Of a stretch of DNA of 31,222 bases, positions 3,143 to 18,013 are shown piece by piece. The position numbers and the translations under genes were made by a program. Position 1 is the stretch's first letter. Every line of letters starts with the position of its first letter. The notes under the pieces were generated by a model, which saw nothing but the letters and a program-made list of their open reading frames with translations, searched no databases and was not told the DNA's origin. Source of the DNA: a virus (Duplodnaviria; Caudoviricetes); the IMG/VR virus record IMGVR_UViG_3300030376_002532, positions 1 to 31,222 of that record. The stretch is one strand, 5' to 3'.

Positions 3143-3292
3143 ATGCATGAATCACTAGAATTTATTTTAAACTTTAACGAAAATCATCACTTGTACACAG
3201 AAGAAGAAAAAGAAAGACTATTGATAGAATGGAAGAAAATGTACAGTGAATATCTTGTCCAAAAAGTAGATGCACAGTTTGCTAAAATATAG
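3143..3292 (+). CDS. Small hypothetical protein (49 aa, not in ORF track)
   Basis: MHESLEFILNFNENHHLYTEEEKERLLIEWKKMYSEYLVQKVDAQFAKI; downstream of the repressor, convergent with the integrase (11-nt overlap). Confidence 0.5.
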   Translation: MHESLEFILNFNENHHLYTEEEKERLLIEWKKMYSEYLVQKVDAQFAKI

Positions 3293-4487
3293 CATTTACA
3301 TATTTTTCCAATTCATTTTCTTGAAACTTCTTATAAGTCTTTAATGTCTTAGGGTCTCTTATGCCTGTTATGGCCATAATAATGTGATCAGGAACATTAC
3401 TATTTGCTGCAATAGTTATAAATGTTCTCCTTGCAGTATGTGAACTTACTAAGCTGTAAAATGGTTTTATTTCTACTATTCGCTTACTGCCTTTATATTT
3501 AGTAGTGGTAACTTCTTCATTGAATCCAGCTATCTTACAAACTTCTTTGATATTGTCGTTAAACTTTTGATTACTTACTTTAGGCAATCTCCACTCCCAT
3601 CTTTCAAGTAAAGCATTTAATTTCTTAGATATTGGAATATAACTTTTGTATTGTGTTTTTTCTGCTCTCTTAACTATTCTATTGTTTATTACATCTGATT
3701 TTTTAAATACTGAATAATCGCTGAATCTTTGTCCTGAATAAATACCTATTAAAAACAAATCTCTGTATTTATCTAAAACAGAATTTAATTCTAAATTTTC
3801 TAATATTTCAATTTTATCTTTTGTCAATGAAACATGGTCTGCATCATGAGTTTTTACTGTTACTTGATTGTAAGTTTCATCTGTTTCTATTCCTGTGTAT
3901 CTGCACCATTTTAAAAAAGTCTTGAAATAACCTAAGTTTCTATCTATTGTAATATCTGTTAGATTGTGGTCTTTTCTTAGATAATTTACAAAACCAATTA
4001 AAAAACTTTTATTAACCCCTAAAACCCCTATTTGAACCCCTGTTTTGTTTTCGTATGCAATTAACTTGTTTCTAAGTGCTGAATATTTTTCTATTGTTCT
4101 TGATTGATATTTTCCTAGTGATTTTTTTTCTTCTACATATTTATTTATTAAATCTATTACTCTATCATTAGAAACTACTACATGCTTAAATTTAGCATCT
4201 AAACGCTTTTTAAGTTCACTTCTAGTTACTTGTTTCTTTTCTAGTTCTATATTACTAATTGAAACATGTAAGTGTTCTACTATTCTATTAAGTTGGTTTG
4301 TGATTTGTTTTATTTCAAATCCAGCAGCTCCAGCTTTAGCTTTTGGCATCCTACTTTCTTTGTTCCAGTTCTTAGGATTTATTGAAATTCCAGTTGAATA
4401 AACAAAGGTTTGTTTTTCAGATTTTACATAATATCTTAGACGAATTGCTGATTTTTTATTACGTGGATTGTTTAGAAAAAAATACAT
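3282..4487 (-). CDS. int: Tyrosine integrase (arm-binding, SAM-like and catalytic domains)
   Basis: YSTGISINPKNW arm-binding motif; GQRFSD (Arg), SSHTARRTF (HxxR), KTY (Tyr); adjacent to attP. Confidence 0.95.
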   Translation of the reverse strand: MYFFLNNPRNKKSAIRLRYYVKSEKQTFVYSTGISINPKNWNKESRMPKAKAGAAGFEIKQITNQLNRIVEHLHVSISNIELEKKQVTRSELKKRLDAKFKHVVVSNDRVIDLINKYVEEKKSLGKYQSRTIEKYSALRNKLIAYENKTGVQIGVLGVNKSFLIGFVNYLRKDHNLTDITIDRNLGYFKTFLKWCRYTGIETDETYNQVTVKTHDADHVSLTKDKIEILENLELNSVLDKYRDLFLIGIYSGQRFSDYSVFKKSDVINNRIVKRAEKTQYKSYIPISKKLNALLERWEWRLPKVSNQKFNDNIKEVCKIAGFNEEVTTTKYKGSKRIVEIKPFYSLVSSHTARRTFITIAANSNVPDHIIMAITGIRDPKTLKTYKKFQENELEKYVNAIF

Positions 4488-10629: not shown

Positions 10630-11142
10630 TTAAGTTAAAACCCATCCGCCAAAATCATCTGAATAATCAGGGCTAATGTCATCATTACTATTTGTAAAAT
10701 ATTCAGGAAACATGCTACTTGCATTAAAATTTAAGAAGTCAATCATTCTTGTGGAATAATACTGAGCAGCATCCCTTTCTTTTTCTACCATTTTATCAAT
10801 TTCTTCTCCTGTTAGTGCTGTTGCATTTTCAGGATTGTTTCTGTAAACACCACCGTTTCCAATTGTAACACTTAAATAAGGTAAAGCATACATCATTGCA
10901 TAATGAATTAAAGTTGGTTTGATGTATTCTGAAACCAAAGTCAAGTAATTGCCTGTTAGTGTTTGTGGATTTGCAGCTATGTCAGCAGATATTTTATCAT
11001 AAAGTTTAGTCCCTAATAACCTTTCAATGTCTATTTTTTGGGCCATGTCTATGTAAGGCAGCAGTTTATCAGTGTCAATATTTCCATTGGCTGCTGTGAA
11101 CCTTGTAATATCTTTTCTTTGTATGAATAATGCTTTAGCCAT
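10630..11142 (-). CDS. Putative head-tail adaptor
   Basis: AQKIDIERLLGTKLYDKI...YIKPTLIHYAM helical pattern; lies downstream of the portal. Confidence 0.6.
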   Translation of the reverse strand: MAKALFIQRKDITRFTAANGNIDTDKLLPYIDMAQKIDIERLLGTKLYDKISADIAANPQTLTGNYLTLVSEYIKPTLIHYAMMYALPYLSVTIGNGGVYRNNPENATALTGEEIDKMVEKERDAAQYYSTRMIDFLNFNASSMFPEYFTNSNDDISPDYSDDFGGWVLT

Positions 11143-11143
11143 T

Positions 11144-11533
11144 TTATATTTTAAATTTTCTTAATTTACTTTCTGCTGTTTGAAATTTTATTTGATAATC
11201 TTCAATTTCTTGTGCTGCTTTTGTTAAATTTTTACCAGCAGTAGTTTTTCTTATATCAACACCTAATTCTTTACCTATTTTATCAATTCTTGCAAACATC
11301 TTATCAACTTCTCCACTTAATTTGTTTAATTTTTTTAAACCATCATTCATTTTAAATGCTCCACTTAAAATATCATCTGCTGCATCTTTTTTAGAATTAT
11401 TGTAAATTTTTTCAGCTTTTATCATAAAATCTCTAGCTTCTTTTTCAGCATTTAACTCTATTCTTTCTGCACTTAACTCTACACTCTCATTATGTAGGTT
11501 TAACTTTTTATATATTCTTTCTTGTGTTGTCAT
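11144..11533 (-). CDS. Putative internal head (cargo) protein 3, paralog family
   Basis: MTTQERIYKKLN leader, VELS/IELN, KELGVD motif; helical. Confidence 0.7.
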   Translation of the reverse strand: MTTQERIYKKLNLHNESVELSAERIELNAEKEARDFMIKAEKIYNNSKKDAADDILSGAFKMNDGLKKLNKLSGEVDKMFARIDKIGKELGVDIRKTTAGKNLTKAAQEIEDYQIKFQTAESKLRKFKI

Positions 11534-12259
11534 TATTTAAATTGTTTTTATAAATTGTTTTATATTTTTTAAAACAGGTTTATATTCTTTTGCATCTTTT
11601 ACAGCAATTTTTGCATCTTTTAATTCTTCTACTCTATTCTCATCAACACCTAATTCTTTTGTTATTTTCTGTACTTTAGAAATTAGTGCTTCCATTTTAT
11701 TAGCTGCTTTTAATGCTTCTTCTATTTTAGTTTCTGCACTTTTTGCTTCACTTAATAAACCTTTAATTTTAGAATTAGCAGTATCAGTATTCCTATAATA
11801 AAGTGTATTTAATTTTTTTAAATCATCAACAACACTTAACTCTACTCTATGCGCTTCCAATTCTACCTTGTTAATGCTGTTCAGTTTGCTATATATTCTT
11901 TCTTGTGTTGTCATTATAATTTATTTTTAATATATTCCACTTAATATTTTATCAATAGACTTAATGTTTTCATTAACTTGAGATTCAAATTTTTCAATCT
12001 GTTTCAAAGCATTTGAAGCACCTAATTCTTTTGCAATTTTTTTAGATTTTGCAATTTTTTTAAATAAACTTTTATTAAGTTTTAATGAGTTTTCAAGTGG
12101 TTTTTTAGCTGCTTCTATCATGTCAATTCCTCTAATTGCTCCTTTATTGGCTGCTGCCATTTCTTTTTTTATGTCATCAATTGCACCTAATTCAATCTTA
12201 TGAGCTTCCAATTCTACCTTGTTAATGCTGTTCAGTTTGCTATATATTCTTTCTTGTGT
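11509..12259. repeat. Direct repeats at the 5' ends of the three paralogs
   Basis: 56 nt identical at 11853-11908 and 12204-12259; 28 nt identical at 11509-11536 and 11890-11917. Confidence 0.9.
11537..11914 (-). CDS. Putative internal head (cargo) protein 2, paralog family
   Basis: MTTQERIYSKLN leader, VELE/VELS, KELGVD motif. Confidence 0.7.
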   Translation of the reverse strand: MTTQERIYSKLNSINKVELEAHRVELSVVDDLKKLNTLYYRNTDTANSKIKGLLSEAKSAETKIEEALKAANKMEALISKVQKITKELGVDENRVEELKDAKIAVKDAKEYKPVLKNIKQFIKTI

Positions 12260-12265
12260 ATTCAT
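11927..12265 (-). CDS. Putative internal head (cargo) protein 1, paralog family
   Basis: MNTQERIYSKLN leader, VELE/IELG, KELGA motif. Confidence 0.7.
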   Translation of the reverse strand: MNTQERIYSKLNSINKVELEAHKIELGAIDDIKKEMAAANKGAIRGIDMIEAAKKPLENSLKLNKSLFKKIAKSKKIAKELGASNALKQIEKFESQVNENIKSIDKILSGIY

Positions 12266-12269
12266 ATCT

Positions 12270-14087
12270 TTATTTTGTTGGATAAGCTCCTTGTTTTGGC
12301 ATATTAACAGGTGCTTTACTTGCTTTTTTATGTCCTCTTGGCTTTGCTCTATAACTTTTAGGAATATCCTTTACTATATCATAATCGCCTAATTTCTTAC
12401 TACCTTTTTTGCCATCTAAAGCAGCATCAATCTTCATTTTATATAAAACCTCTTTCCATTTGTGTCTACAATAAACACCGCCTTTAAGCTCAAATAAATT
12501 GTATTTTTGACCATTGTGCATAGGTAGTTTAGCTGCTGCAAAATTCATATCACTGCTAGCTTTGTCAATGTCTTCAATTCTATAAACAACCCCTCTCTTA
12601 CTTCTAGCCATCATTGCTTCACAAAACGGCCTTGATTTATTGCCTTTCTTTTTTGGTTTTTTAGAACCTTCTGCATACTTATATCTTACTTTGTAATAAG
12701 ATTTATCTAAATAAGAAAAGCCCTCAGGATTGTTTTTTAGTGGTGTGTCACTTTTAACAGATTCAGCAAAATTTACTTCTAAAACACTACCAGCCCAGCT
12801 TTCAAGACTTTCATTTTCATTGTCTACATCTCTTTCATCTGCAACCTCCCATTCTTCACTCATTACTTCTCCATGTAAACCATCTAAAACAGCATTGAAA
12901 ACATCATCAGGTAAATCAGATTTATTTGCCATCATTTCAATTTCACTATATAAAGCATCTTCTTGCTTAACTCCTGTTTCTTCTTCTATTACTTCTTCAT
13001 TAGTAACCTCAATATCCATAAACTCTAAAGGGTCAAGTGTCTTAAAGTATAGATTTAGTGAAATATCATTTACTGCCAAAACCTCATCTAAACAGTCTAT
13101 TATTAAATCTTGATAAGGTCTTATAGTAGTGTTTGAAAACAGTCTTTGTGCGTTTTCTATTTCTTCTGAATTTGAACCAAGACCACTATTTCCATCTCTT
13201 AATCCTAGTAATAATGGACTTGTAACTCTGTGAGATAGTAAAATCTTTTTAGAACATTCTTCACTTAGGTACTGATAGTGTTGAGGTGCATCATTTAATG
13301 GTATATCTTCAACAGTTGTCTTTTGTTCTGCATTGTGATTAAAAGCAATAATACACTTTTCGCCAAATGAACCTGTTAGCTTGTTCATCACTTGGCTTTT
13401 AATCTGTTGCATTTTTTCTTCTGATGGAATACCTGAGTTAAAATTTATAACCTTAGTCCCCGAAAAAGAGTTTTGAGCATCATTGATTAAGTAGTCTGCA
13501 ATCTCCTTCTCCAAAGTAGCATAAGAAGTAGAATAATCTGCTGGGCTTATGTAATGATAACCAGTAACATATCTTTTAATAATCTTTACTTCATTGCCTG
13601 TTCCTTTACTACCAAAAACAGGTATTTTAGTTAGTTCAGTGTTGTTTCTAACTTTTGACCAATCAGCACTATAATAATAGGCTTCTATATCGCCGTTTTC
13701 GTTGCATTTCTCAGGTCTTAACGTTTCCCTTGGAAAATGTGTAACCTTGTGTACTTTTTTGCCCTTATAACTAATCTGTAGAGCCGCTTCGCCCAACATC
13801 TTTAAATCCAAACTGATTTTCCTTAACACATCAGGTTTAAGAAGCTTTTTCATTTCTGCAAACTGCTCAGGTTTTTGAGCTGCATCTGTTGCTTCTAATC
13901 CTCTACCATAAATCTGTTGAGCAATACCTGTAATCACTGCTTGATTAGTAGTAGAATCCATAAAACAGTCAATAAGACCTTGATAATAAGCGTTATCTTC
14001 TCCTACTCCAACCCAATCGCGATTAGTTTCTTCTGTTACTAATGGCCTTTCATATTGGCTTAATTCTATAAAGTGCAAGTTGTTCAT
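12270..14087 (-). CDS. Portal protein with C-terminal MuF-like extension
   Basis: Portal-like N-terminal about 350 aa (KILLSHRVTSPLLLG, TIRPYQDLI), acidic linker, then SRPFCEAM...KGGVYCRHKW. Confidence 0.8.
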   Translation of the reverse strand: MNNLHFIELSQYERPLVTEETNRDWVGVGEDNAYYQGLIDCFMDSTTNQAVITGIAQQIYGRGLEATDAAQKPEQFAEMKKLLKPDVLRKISLDLKMLGEAALQISYKGKKVHKVTHFPRETLRPEKCNENGDIEAYYYSADWSKVRNNTELTKIPVFGSKGTGNEVKIIKRYVTGYHYISPADYSTSYATLEKEIADYLINDAQNSFSGTKVINFNSGIPSEEKMQQIKSQVMNKLTGSFGEKCIIAFNHNAEQKTTVEDIPLNDAPQHYQYLSEECSKKILLSHRVTSPLLLGLRDGNSGLGSNSEEIENAQRLFSNTTIRPYQDLIIDCLDEVLAVNDISLNLYFKTLDPLEFMDIEVTNEEVIEEETGVKQEDALYSEIEMMANKSDLPDDVFNAVLDGLHGEVMSEEWEVADERDVDNENESLESWAGSVLEVNFAESVKSDTPLKNNPEGFSYLDKSYYKVRYKYAEGSKKPKKKGNKSRPFCEAMMARSKRGVVYRIEDIDKASSDMNFAAAKLPMHNGQKYNLFELKGGVYCRHKWKEVLYKMKIDAALDGKKGSKKLGDYDIVKDIPKSYRAKPRGHKKASKAPVNMPKQGAYPTK

Positions 14088-15153: not shown

Positions 15154-16083
15154 TTAAGCGTGGTAAAGAACGATTTCAGAACCAATTCCATACTGAACAC
15201 CTGCTGTATATCTCATGATCACTCTGAAATTTTGAGAACCATTAAGATTAGCCATGTCTATAATCTTAGCTTCGTTATAGTCGCTTAAAAGACCTGTTCC
15301 AAAGTATAAGTTTGATTTCTGAGCTGCCATTGCAGTGTCATCATTTAATCCATTTGCAATAAATAACTTAACACCATCAAATAGTAAGTTATCTCCTAAA
15401 TCTTGGTTTGTACCTCTACCTTCATAACCATTAGAACCAACACTTGCAAATCCACCTAAAGCTCTAACGTAAGCTCTAGCAATGTTTTGTGAAACATAAA
15501 TGTGTAAATCTTCTTTACCGTAAAGAGCAGAAGGAATTGCATCTACAATAGAACCTAGTTTGTCAATAACGTTTGAAGAAGTTACAGCAGCGTGAGAAGC
15601 TACATCAATAACATCTGAATCTGCTAATGCTAATGGAACTAATCCATCAAATTGTCCAGCAGAAGCATTTGCGCCTTCCCATATGTTTGTTTCAGTGCTT
15701 TCTGCTACTAATCCAGCAACATGTCCTAGTATATAGCTAGAAAAGTCTTTTGGTGGATTGTTATAAGCTGAAAAGCCCATTGAAATCGCTTCCCATGAGT
15801 TTACAAAATCTTTTGTACAAAATTCCATATTCACTTGGAACTCCTCAGGTTGTAAGATTCTTTCAGTCATTGTAACTGTTCCTGTTGCATCAAAACCACA
15901 GGTCGCATCCTTAATTACGTTAGCATCAGTTGCTAATTTTTTGATTACTTCTTTAAATTTTACATTTTGCTTTACAGTAATACCACCTTTTGCTATTGTG
16001 TTACCCTCTAAAAGAGCAGCAGCAATATATCCAGCAGCATCTTGTCCAGCGTATGTACTTGTTAAGCTTGTTGTTGTTGCCAT
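15154..16083 (-). CDS. Major capsid protein
   Basis: 309 aa, follows protease and scaffold; NIWEG...FDGL motif and HK97-fold-like size. Confidence 0.85.
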   Translation of the reverse strand: MATTTSLTSTYAGQDAAGYIAAALLEGNTIAKGGITVKQNVKFKEVIKKLATDANVIKDATCGFDATGTVTMTERILQPEEFQVNMEFCTKDFVNSWEAISMGFSAYNNPPKDFSSYILGHVAGLVAESTETNIWEGANASAGQFDGLVPLALADSDVIDVASHAAVTSSNVIDKLGSIVDAIPSALYGKEDLHIYVSQNIARAYVRALGGFASVGSNGYEGRGTNQDLGDNLLFDGVKLFIANGLNDDTAMAAQKSNLYFGTGLLSDYNEAKIIDMANLNGSQNFRVIMRYTAGVQYGIGSEIVLYHA

Positions 16084-16094
16084 TTTATTTGTTT

Positions 16095-16664
16095 TTAATT
16101 ATTATTTAGTCTGTTGTAAATCCTATCCATTTTAGTTTCTATTTTATTGGATATTTTGAAATTGAATTTTTTATCTTCTTTTTCAGGATTATGTTTAATA
16201 GGTTCAGCGACATCAGCAGATAGTTCTTCTTTTTCTACTTCTTCTTTAACTTCTGTTTCTTCGCTCATCTCTTCTTTATCTCCGATTTTCTCGATCATTG
16301 ACTTAATTTCTTCTACTGCTAAAGCAAATTCTTCTTTAGTAACATACATTTCCTCTTTTTCTTCTTCAAGGTCTGTTTCTACTTTTGCTTCTACTTCTTC
16401 TTCTTTAGCTTCTGCAATAGCATCAATTAAACCTTCTTCTTTTACCATTAGCTTTCTGCCATCTTCTAAGGCATATTCTCCAACAGGAAGTGCAATTTCT
16501 TCTTCTTCTGATTTAATAAATATTGCTTTGCCAGCTTCGAAACTTTCAGCAACTAAAATAGTGCCGTTTTCTAATTTTAATTCTTCGAGTTGTACAGATA
16601 CTTCTTCTGAAAGTTCCACACCAACCACGTTCTTGATTTTATTAAGTATTTCTTGCGCTTTCAT
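16095..16664 (-). CDS. Capsid scaffolding protein
   Basis: Very acidic, LPVGEYALEDG motif, short C-terminal helix TKMDRIYNRLNNN; immediately upstream of the capsid gene. Confidence 0.8.
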   Translation of the reverse strand: MKAQEILNKIKNVVGVELSEEVSVQLEELKLENGTILVAESFEAGKAIFIKSEEEEIALPVGEYALEDGRKLMVKEEGLIDAIAEAKEEEVEAKVETDLEEEKEEMYVTKEEFALAVEEIKSMIEKIGDKEEMSEETEVKEEVEKEELSADVAEPIKHNPEKEDKKFNFKISNKIETKMDRIYNRLNNN

Positions 16665-16715: not shown

Positions 16716-16856
16716 TTATACTGGACCTATGCCTTGTGCTTGATGTGAACCATCACAGCATTTAGAATGATAAGTATTATCAGCACACAAACATCCCCTT
16801 TTACCACCTTTAGGAGATGTCTTACTCATTGTTTTGTTTTCTCTTTTCTTTTTCAT
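16716..16856 (-). CDS. Small Cys-rich protein with CDGSH-like motif (46 aa, not in ORF track)
   Basis: MKKKRENKTMSKTSPKGGKRGCLCADNTYHSKCCDGSHQAQGIGPV; ATGA overlap with the protease stop. Confidence 0.75.
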   Translation of the reverse strand: MKKKRENKTMSKTSPKGGKRGCLCADNTYHSKCCDGSHQAQGIGPV

Positions 16857-18013
16857 TTTTTCTTAACGCATTTATGTTTTTGATAGTCTTTCTTATAACC
16901 TTTTGGACACTTGTATTTTTTAAGTGAATGCTTTTCACATGGCATATACCATTGTTTGTCTTCAAACTCATGTGTGTGTATTCCTTCACATCCTATATTA
17001 ACAGCCATTTCTTCTGCTTTTTCTTTAGTTGAATAAGCAAGCCTATCATCTATAATAGCAAAGTCATCATTTATAAGCATTGACTCCAAATTAATTTCTC
17101 CTAGTTCTTTTAGCTTGCTTTCACTCCATCTTAAACCAGCTTTTCCACCCCACAATAAATAAGAGATAGTTCCACACGCTTGATTGTCGTTTTCATCGTA
17201 ATATTCAGAAGCTCTTGATAAATAGCTGTACATTCTTTTGATGGTTTCTAAACTGATGTTTTTTTTGTCTCTTAGCTGCGTGGCTCTTATTTTACCTACT
17301 TGAGTTGCACACTTATTACTTACTTTTTCGTTAAGTTCAATTCCACGTTTAGCATTGTTACTAACTGAATCAGGATAATCGTTGTAAGTTTCTAAAGTAA
17401 TTTTTTCATCTTTTACAATATCTCTAATTGTGTTTAGCATGTAAACAGCTTCACTTTCTAAAATAGCTTCCATTTCTTGTGCTGTGCTATCTCTTTTCAT
17501 TTTTGCTTTGTCTGCAAAATATCCTTCAATTGAAAAACCTTTTACTTTTCCGCTTTTTACGTAGTCATTCCAAACCTCATCATTTTCAACTTTCATTGAA
17601 ATCATCCAAGTGCCAACAGGAACTTCCAAACCATACTTAGCAGATTTATCCATTTTAGTGTCTTCTACTATCCAGCTTTCAAATACTGTTAAATCATCTA
17701 TTCCCATGCTATGTTCTAAAGTAGCATTGTTTTGATTACCGTTCTTAAAAAATAGTTCTGCTGCCCTTCTTACAGTGTCTTTAGAGAAATAAACATAAAA
17801 CATGTCTTCTCCTTTTTTTCTAAATATTGGCTTATTAGGTATTAAGGCAGCTCCCATTAAGATGCGCTTTTCTTCATCTACCGCTGCTAATTTCACTTCT
17901 TGTTCTGCTAATGCAATAAAATCACTTTCTATTGCGCCGTTCTCTACGATTGACACCGCATCTATTCCAGTCATCTCGTTTTCTTCATCTAATATTAATT
18001 CTACTATTTCCAT
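16853..18013 (-). CDS. Prohead serine protease (XkdF-like) with appended C-terminal domains
   Basis: KRILMGAALIPNKPI, TLEH, VFESWIVE, PVGTW, VKSGKVKGFSIEG. Confidence 0.85.
   Translation of the reverse strand: MEIVELILDEENEMTGIDAVSIVENGAIESDFIALAEQEVKLAAVDEEKRILMGAALIPNKPIFRKKGEDMFYVYFSKDTVRRAAELFFKNGNQNNATLEHSMGIDDLTVFESWIVEDTKMDKSAKYGLEVPVGTWMISMKVENDEVWNDYVKSGKVKGFSIEGYFADKAKMKRDSTAQEMEAILESEAVYMLNTIRDIVKDEKITLETYNDYPDSVSNNAKRGIELNEKVSNKCATQVGKIRATQLRDKKNISLETIKRMYSYLSRASEYYDENDNQACGTISYLLWGGKAGLRWSESKLKELGEINLESMLINDDFAIIDDRLAYSTKEKAEEMAVNIGCEGIHTHEFEDKQWYMPCEKHSLKKYKCPKGYKKDYQKHKCVKKK

Follow-up and report, generated by a model that had tools for sequence, protein, structure and literature searches.

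Coiled-coil hairpin genes with scaffold-tail-like leaders in the head modules of marine phages

Genes that join a short leader to a coiled-coil hairpin are a real and widespread feature of common ocean phages, and they make up a large unannotated superfamily: a leader-only profile recovers 726 leader-bearing clusters at 50% identity, with the leader at the N-terminus in all of the 150 best-listed. As a class, these leaders appear to mimic the C-terminal helix of the phage's own scaffolding protein, a reading that is well supported by sequence comparison, and head loading of the proteins followed by cleavage is probable on the same kind of evidence. We describe the genes from one stretch of DNA of 31,222 nucleotides, analysed whole and called the window here (IMG/VR record IMGVR_UViG_3300030376_002532, Caudoviricetes), and from related loci. 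Marine metagenomes contain the window DNA. As cultured relatives, only the Nonlabens phages P12024L/S came to light, with a capsid protein 33% identical; these phages and the bin labels of related contigs suggest a flavobacterial host. The relatives L199-L233 from the genome collection sit mostly on contigs no longer than about 30 kb, in metagenome bins whose labels are scattered, and are apparently mis-binned phages. A tyrosine integrase (phrog_1) at 3282-4487 (minus strand) of the window suggests a temperate lifestyle.

Three leader-bearing genes in a phage head module

The head module of the window lies on the minus strand and consists of terminase, protease, a 189-aa gene, capsid protein, portal, three leader-bearing genes and a DUF6712 gene. 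It is an HK97-fold head module with an S78-type prohead protease, having a major capsid protein of HK97 fold without a built-in N-terminal scaffold domain (15154..16083, -), a portal protein (12270..14087, -; phrog_33693, E 1.9e-70) and an XkdF-type (Peptidase_S78_2) prohead protease (16853..18013, -) whose C-terminal part is a row of accessory modules with xxL motifs between them. The 189-aa gene (16095..16664, -) lies between the protease and the capsid gene, and we call it the scaffold because of this position and because the protease is fused to its counterpart in P12024L; protease and scaffold are one protein in that phage and in locus L225. The putative scaffold is built of an N-terminal helix with xEL sites, a small beta domain, an acidic region rich in xEL/xEM and a basic tail helix. 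The last of these, TKMDRIYNRLN (residues 177-187; 16104..16136, -), is the helix that the leaders resemble and would be the one binding the capsid protein. The scaffold N-terminus is also a helix with two xEL motifs, a feature unremarked in the initial annotation. The conserved beta domain (16400-16590, -) is free of xEL motifs and may survive maturation. Between protease and scaffold lies a basic, Cys-rich ORF of 46 aa (16716-16856, -), present in most relatives and possibly a small metal-binding head protein.

The three tandem minus-strand genes are flanked upstream by the portal gene and downstream by the DUF6712 gene (10630..11142, -), from its position a likely head-tail adaptor. All three start with M(T/N)TQERIY(S/K)KLN, and each leader then carries two [VI]EL[SEGN] motifs seven residues apart. 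Gene 1 (11927..12265, -) encodes a leader-bearing hairpin of 112 aa, with a predicted mature form of 86 aa and net charge +7. Its scaffold-tail-like leader helix (residues 1-12; 12230..12265, -) is followed by the paired xEL motifs (residues 17-26; 12188..12217, -), which are predicted prohead-protease sites, and by a KELG hairpin turn (12020..12031, -) 54 residues after the second site; the model has helices at 3-81 and 84-111. Gene 2 (11537..11914, -; 125 aa, predicted mature form 99 aa, +5) has its leader at 11837..11914 (-), divided into the helix (11879-11914) and the paired motifs (11837-11866), with 61 residues from there to the KELG turn (11648..11659, -). In gene 3 (11144..11533, -; 129 aa, predicted mature form 102 aa, +6) the leader occupies 11453..11533 (-), with the helix at 11498-11533 and the motifs at 11453-11482, and the KELG turn (11261..11272, -) comes 62 residues further. 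The initial annotation had described the three tandem leaders, their match to the scaffold tail and the paired xEL motifs, and each was found where it had been placed.

The leader DNA of gene 2 is 86% identical to the start of gene 1 over 102 nt. The DNA of the KELG turn is itself a three-copy repeat of 68-76% identity (11260-11297, 11647-11684, 12019-12056), where recombination might occur as well as at the leader repeat. Contigs from other samples cover all three genes, and one contig joins the end of the portal gene straight to gene 3, without genes 1 and 2. RNA contigs were discounted as evidence of expression. Given this coverage and the purifying selection on their bodies (below), the three genes are real. 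A sigma-70 promoter scan gave nothing above chance.

Within the window, the scaffold tail is the best BLOSUM62 match for all three leaders among 11,493 windows taken from all of its ORFs, with scores of 30, 35 and 34 against 28, 22 and 24 for the next-best windows; the resemblance noticed in the initial annotation thus exceeds chance. The gene 2 leader and the scaffold tail use different codons at all six of their common residues, so a recent DNA copy of the tail is ruled out and the likeness sits at the protein level.

Leader, scaffold tail and protease motif in related phages

Loci of relatives were collected by the capsid protein or by the xEL part, never by the leader helix. For 63 of their 102 leaders, no other head-module window outscores the phage's own scaffold tail, and for 84 of 102 that tail lies within the top 0.5%; the scaffold N-terminus is unbeaten for just 6. 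When three candidate helices are compared, the tail is the best in 16 of 20 lineages, and in the other four the leader is closer to the helix after the protease domain or to the first helix of the scaffold. The scaffold-mimic leader proposed from the window thus holds for most of its relatives and gives way to a protease-linker or scaffold-N helix in a minority. As a general mimic of the scaffold N-terminus the leader can be rejected (6 of 102, and no co-variation), though this description fits that minority.

The initial annotation had asked whether leader and tail covary. The own tail outscores those of other lineages (17.6 vs 14.8, p 0.0016 in 31 lineages, a comparison that left out L154 and L053 with their clipped scaffolds; p 0.002 on 27 lineages), and the excess comes mainly from two positions (identity 0.43 vs 0.21 and 0.33 vs 0.19). 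On the other side, the own tail ranks first in only 2-3 of the 31 lineages, with a median rank of 10, and tree-independent contrasts (75 rows, underpowered with 3-7 pairs per trait) run mostly in the expected direction, none of them significantly. Mimicry at the level of the class is thus well supported by these sequences; co-evolution at the level of residues, with related lineages and contrasts without significance, is no more than suggested. That a short amphipathic helix is a low-information motif also counts against the mimicry reading.

Leaders on different bodies in close phages have an identity of 0.75 (295 pairs). Where distant phages carry the same body it is 0.47 (15 pairs, of which two are artefacts caused by clipping of the L154 scaffold), and the background is 0.37. 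The leader thus tracks the phage lineage, or its head machinery, and not the body.

Another reading takes the leader as no capsid-binding mimic at all: it would be a generic amphipathic helix, or a linker split off from the protease, with scaffold or protease as its binding partner, or it would be kept mainly as a cassette for recombination and translation. In L146 and L185 the whole leader lies inside the C-terminal extension of the protease, which speaks for such an origin, as do the four lineages with a better match elsewhere, the direct repeat formed by leader DNA and the contig that runs from the portal end to gene 3. The same reading has to face the 16 of 20 lineages in which the tail is best, the conservation of leader residues across the 726 clusters, and a lineage co-variation that is seen with the tail (p 0.013 and 0.0016) and not with the protease helix (p 0.30) or the scaffold N-terminus (p 0.67). 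We consider it quite unlikely. The first helix of the scaffold (16608-16664, -) resembles the helix after the protease domain (L049, L073, L217) with a mean score of about 16 and no lineage co-variation; it is possibly a second self-assembly helix, duplicated when the protease and scaffold genes split.

The second half of the leader points to the protease. The motif was scored as [VIT][EDKN][LFM][SAG], in fold over shuffles, with 119 scaffold proteins. It reaches 10.2x in the first 30 residues of the scaffold and 6.8x in its acidic region, is about 2-fold in the protease and portal extensions, and falls to 1.25x in the capsid protein, 0.95x in hairpin bodies and 0.8x in the scaffold tail; the scaffold beta domain is not enriched. 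The 27-fold value in leaders is circular, because they were selected on the motif. The initial annotation had pointed to similar motifs in the scaffold, and the enrichment there, absent from the bodies, bears this out. A maturation protease that degrades the scaffold and leaves intact the parts to be retained would be expected to give such a pattern. Cleavage is likely to fall after the L/M/F, because position 2 of the motif varies and the L/M/F and the small next residue do not. Herpesvirus assemblin similarly prefers a hydrophobic P3 and a small P1'. If correct, this would provide a proposed cleavage rule for XkdF-type proteases.

Some hairpins are also attached to the protease itself. Among 127 distinct proteases, ten carry a complete hairpin at their end, preceded by an xEL site, and in some lineages these fused hairpins have no tail-like helix. 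Two further modules, carried on 74 and 36 protease extensions, stand alone as two separate genes in one lineage (L037:752-1281; L029:351-880), there starting with a tail-like helix, and so represent a natural swap of protease fusion for leader. The hairpins of this lineage are acidic. In the window, the C-terminal extension of the protease (16853-17500, -), as in L117, L104 and L120, strings together a varying set of modules (phrog_2859-like, DUF3721, small Cys modules) with xxL between them; of these, DUF3721 and one Cys module are also found on portal extensions. The extension has the look of a polyprotein by which small domains would be brought into the head.

In the mechanism that we propose, the leader helix would dock at the scaffold-tail site on the capsid protein of the growing prohead, by analogy with the binding of the 80alpha and P22 tails. 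The XkdF-type protease would then cut behind the second xEL and release the hairpin, which would remain in the head, as may be judged from bodies that lack the motif and a scaffold that is full of it. The hairpins might then oligomerise, given their longer first helix, and be injected at infection to act on the host. Leader DNA would double as a recombination point at which bodies are swapped, added or deleted.

Hairpin bodies and their possible roles

At 50% identity the 149 distinct proteins form 100 groups, yet 111 of the proteins link at E<1e-5. Hydrophobic periodicity of the bodies peaks at 102.5 degrees. Counted from the second site, the turn leucine follows at 47, 54, 61, 68, 75, 82, 89 or 110 residues in 67 of 100 representatives, and the same heptad length series appears in 70 of 100 parsed matches of an independent leader search. 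The body of gene 1 is modelled as a two-helix hairpin (pLDDT 89); in the monomer model one helix runs through the xEL sites (pLDDT 73-76 there), and it would have to open for cutting. A Lys-rich turn tip, K-x-x-K-x-A-K-[ED]-L-G, is conserved, and net charge ranges from -10 to +12 with a median of +3. Helix 1 exceeds helix 2 by 25-60 residues, and because it outruns its partner oligomers are likely. Within body families the median dN/dS is 0.23 (54 pairs), similar to capsid and scaffold and indicative of purifying selection; positive selection inside these families was not seen, none of the 54 pairs having a ratio above 1.

The bodies are therefore a single unannotated superfamily of heptad coiled-coil hairpins and not unrelated cargo. 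The earlier statement that they share only KELG does not stand, since a heptad register, a quantised helix length and the hairpin fold are common to them as well; the variable proteins of that annotation are one structural superfamily. Because the bodies are one superfamily, the portability of the tag, raised as a possibility in the initial annotation, is in nature limited to the two small modules of the L029/L037 lineage.

A search for the leader on unrelated cargo, among the best 150 of the 726 clusters, led to the same picture: of 116 matches of at least 95 aa, 100 parse as hairpins and 13 are similar by eye, and in the remaining three (P0143, P0165, P0201), probable assembly chimeras, the sequence turns abruptly into something unrelated. 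With the ROP, PspA/ESCRT-III and HR1 hairpin families as points of comparison, Foldseek with the hairpin found no match at E<=0.001, the ESM Atlas gave no usable match, no curated Pfam family is common to the members, and a PHROG scan of 59 members hit only two PHROGs of unknown function with one member each. The best VIA match of the hairpin (Z 10.7, rmsd 5.2, 72 aligned) stands among many unrelated coiled coils, and its best PDB sequence match is an engineered ROP (E 5e-4); matches to haemagglutinin HA2, ROP, PspA and ATP-synthase b' were all rejected as heptad bias. A fusion-peptide reading was likewise dropped, as the predicted new N-terminus, [GAS]-hydrophobic-hydrophobic-D-D, is not hydrophobic.

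Leader-bearing genes are optional members of the head module. The capsid protein led to 80 loci, in which 30 head modules are fully spanned; 22 of these modules have no leader gene, six have one and two have two; L001 and L003, 97% identical in capsid protein, are without any. A search with the paired xEL motif returned 44 loci, 41 of them head modules and the other three chance matches, and all 74 further new loci are head modules. The motif is N-terminal in 82 of the 102 metagenome ORFs that contain it (45 lie beside head genes, 34 on pieces mostly too short to show their context, and 3 are unrelated), and in the other 20, which are unrelated proteins, it is internal. There was no leader-gene match among 50,697 phage records. 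Insertion occurs at three sites: between protease and scaffold (109), between portal and DUF6712 gene (87) and after a 183-aa gene (9), these 205 placements including repeated contigs.

Such placement bears on the view that the hairpins are late-expressed moron proteins that act in the infected cell, outside the head. Accessory genes often insert between structural genes, as this view would have it, yet all three sites here are in the head module, and the fusion to the prohead protease and the motif held in common with the scaffold fit it badly; we judge it very improbable. Slightly better placed, and still improbable, is an auxiliary scaffold: oligomers that bind the capsid by a scaffold-like helix, tune its size and leave or are discarded at maturation. 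SaPI1 CpmB, a small helical dimer described as placing its C-terminal helix on the capsid site of the 80alpha scaffold (PMC5644958), offers a precedent, and 109 of the 205 placements adjoin the scaffold gene. Against it, the mimic is N-terminal with two motif sites before the body begins, the motif that riddles the true scaffold is missing from the body, some protease-fused forms have no tail-like helix, and the sister phages with 97% identical capsid protein do without hairpins.

The repertoire of bodies turns over fast. Co-resident bodies belong to one family in none of 56 pairs (maximum identity 39%), a result that mainly excludes simple duplication, because random pairs also do so in only 1%. 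Phages with identical scaffold ends share a body family in 7 of 66 pairs, and distant lineages freely swap bodies. Co-resident copies have matching helix lengths in 11 of 56 pairs versus 23% by chance, which lends no support to a heteromeric tube of fixed length.

We tentatively favour, by analogy, an injected and host-directed role for the loaded hairpins, in counter-defence or takeover with one conserved frame and variable surfaces, because their optional presence, several differing copies and fast turnover resemble the T4 ip genes. Function after loading is nevertheless the weakest step of the mechanism, with a structural role close behind. Under the latter, the proteins would be loaded and cleaved in the same manner and, as mildly basic coiled coils with no host target, would buffer or organise the packaged DNA or aid its exit. 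A single fold with a conserved basic, Lys-rich tip and no dN/dS above 1 is as compatible with a shared structural task as with an arms race, and the median charge of +3, the purifying selection similar to that on core head genes and the exchange of bodies between distant lineages agree with it. Yet 22 of the 30 fully spanned modules have no such gene, charges extend from -10 to +12, the lengths of co-resident copies match no more often than chance, contrary to a tube of fixed length, and 100 families in 149 proteins exceed what a filler needs. We regard the structural job as rather unlikely. The most far-reaching version of the injected role, that abundant marine flavobacterial phages use a cleavable and portable scaffold-helix tag to inject hundreds of hairpins, each against a different host defence or receptor and swapped at the tag, is doubtful.

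The hairpins are a possible source of injected proteins for counter-defence or host takeover, and the 26 residues of the leader are offered for engineering as a packaging-and-release tag. To our knowledge, only genetic evidence bears on how T4-type leaders locate the prohead. In the present genes the address may be legible in the sequence itself, as mimicry of the scaffold tail, so that the binding site and the specificity of the protease can be put to a direct test.

Comparison with known head-loading systems

We found no account of the hairpin family, or of a scaffold-tail copy serving as an N-terminal tag, in the openly available main texts searched. The cultured Nonlabens (Persicivirga) phages P12024L/S (Inhavirus), which we compare together with the marine "group 1" putative Flavobacteriaceae phages (PMC5332604), have the same head gene order, a capsid protein 33% identical and xxL motifs in a fused protease-scaffold. 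P12024L differs in that protease and scaffold are one gene, and its head module has no leader-bearing hairpin gene.

A terminal amphipathic helix of the 80alpha scaffold and of CpmB is described as binding the N-arm of the capsid protein (PMC5644958), and in SaPI1 CpmB, as here, a second protein bears a copy of the scaffold's terminal helix. The CpmB copy is C-terminal, encoded by a satellite and redirects capsid size according to the same source, whereas the leader helix is N-terminal in the 150 best-listed clusters, is followed by protease-like sites and belongs to the phage's own genes in its own head module. In engineered P22 fusions (SP 141-303, 238-303; PMC9962691) the C-terminal part of the scaffold suffices to bring cargo into an HK97-fold shell. 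Those fusions, as presented there, are artificial, place the cargo ahead of the scaffold tail and undergo no maturation cleavage; the present tag is apparently natural and stands in front. The N-terminal 30 residues of phage P1 DarB likewise send the protein into the head, with anti-restriction cargo (PMC9024508), though DarB is a single large protein of the Dar pathway, for which that account reports no scaffold mimicry.

The nearest parallel is phage T4, in which the capsid-targeting sequence (CTS) directs proteins to the scaffold core and is cut at L/I-X-E by gp21 (PMC9026906), and in which each ip protein is described as blocking a different GmrSD (PMC12373910). Like IPI, IPII and IPIII in these accounts, the hairpins have a short N-terminal propeptide, here predicted to be removed by the prohead protease, that is common to several dispensable genes (22 of 30 modules lack them), and they occur as several per genome in a varying repertoire. 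The L/I-X-E motif is replaced by [VIT]-x-[LFM] followed by S/A/G. The mature T4 proteins are described as mutually divergent, whereas all bodies here belong to one coiled-coil hairpin family, and the PHROG scan of 59 members found no sequence relation to T4 ip proteins. Injection and anti-restriction are reported as demonstrated for the T4 proteins; for the hairpins they are possible roles. The passages on the CTS in both sources (PMC9026906, PMC12373910) report no likeness to a scaffold tail. The leader system would thus work like the T4 CTS without being a member of it, and the mimicry of the scaffold tail is its new element.
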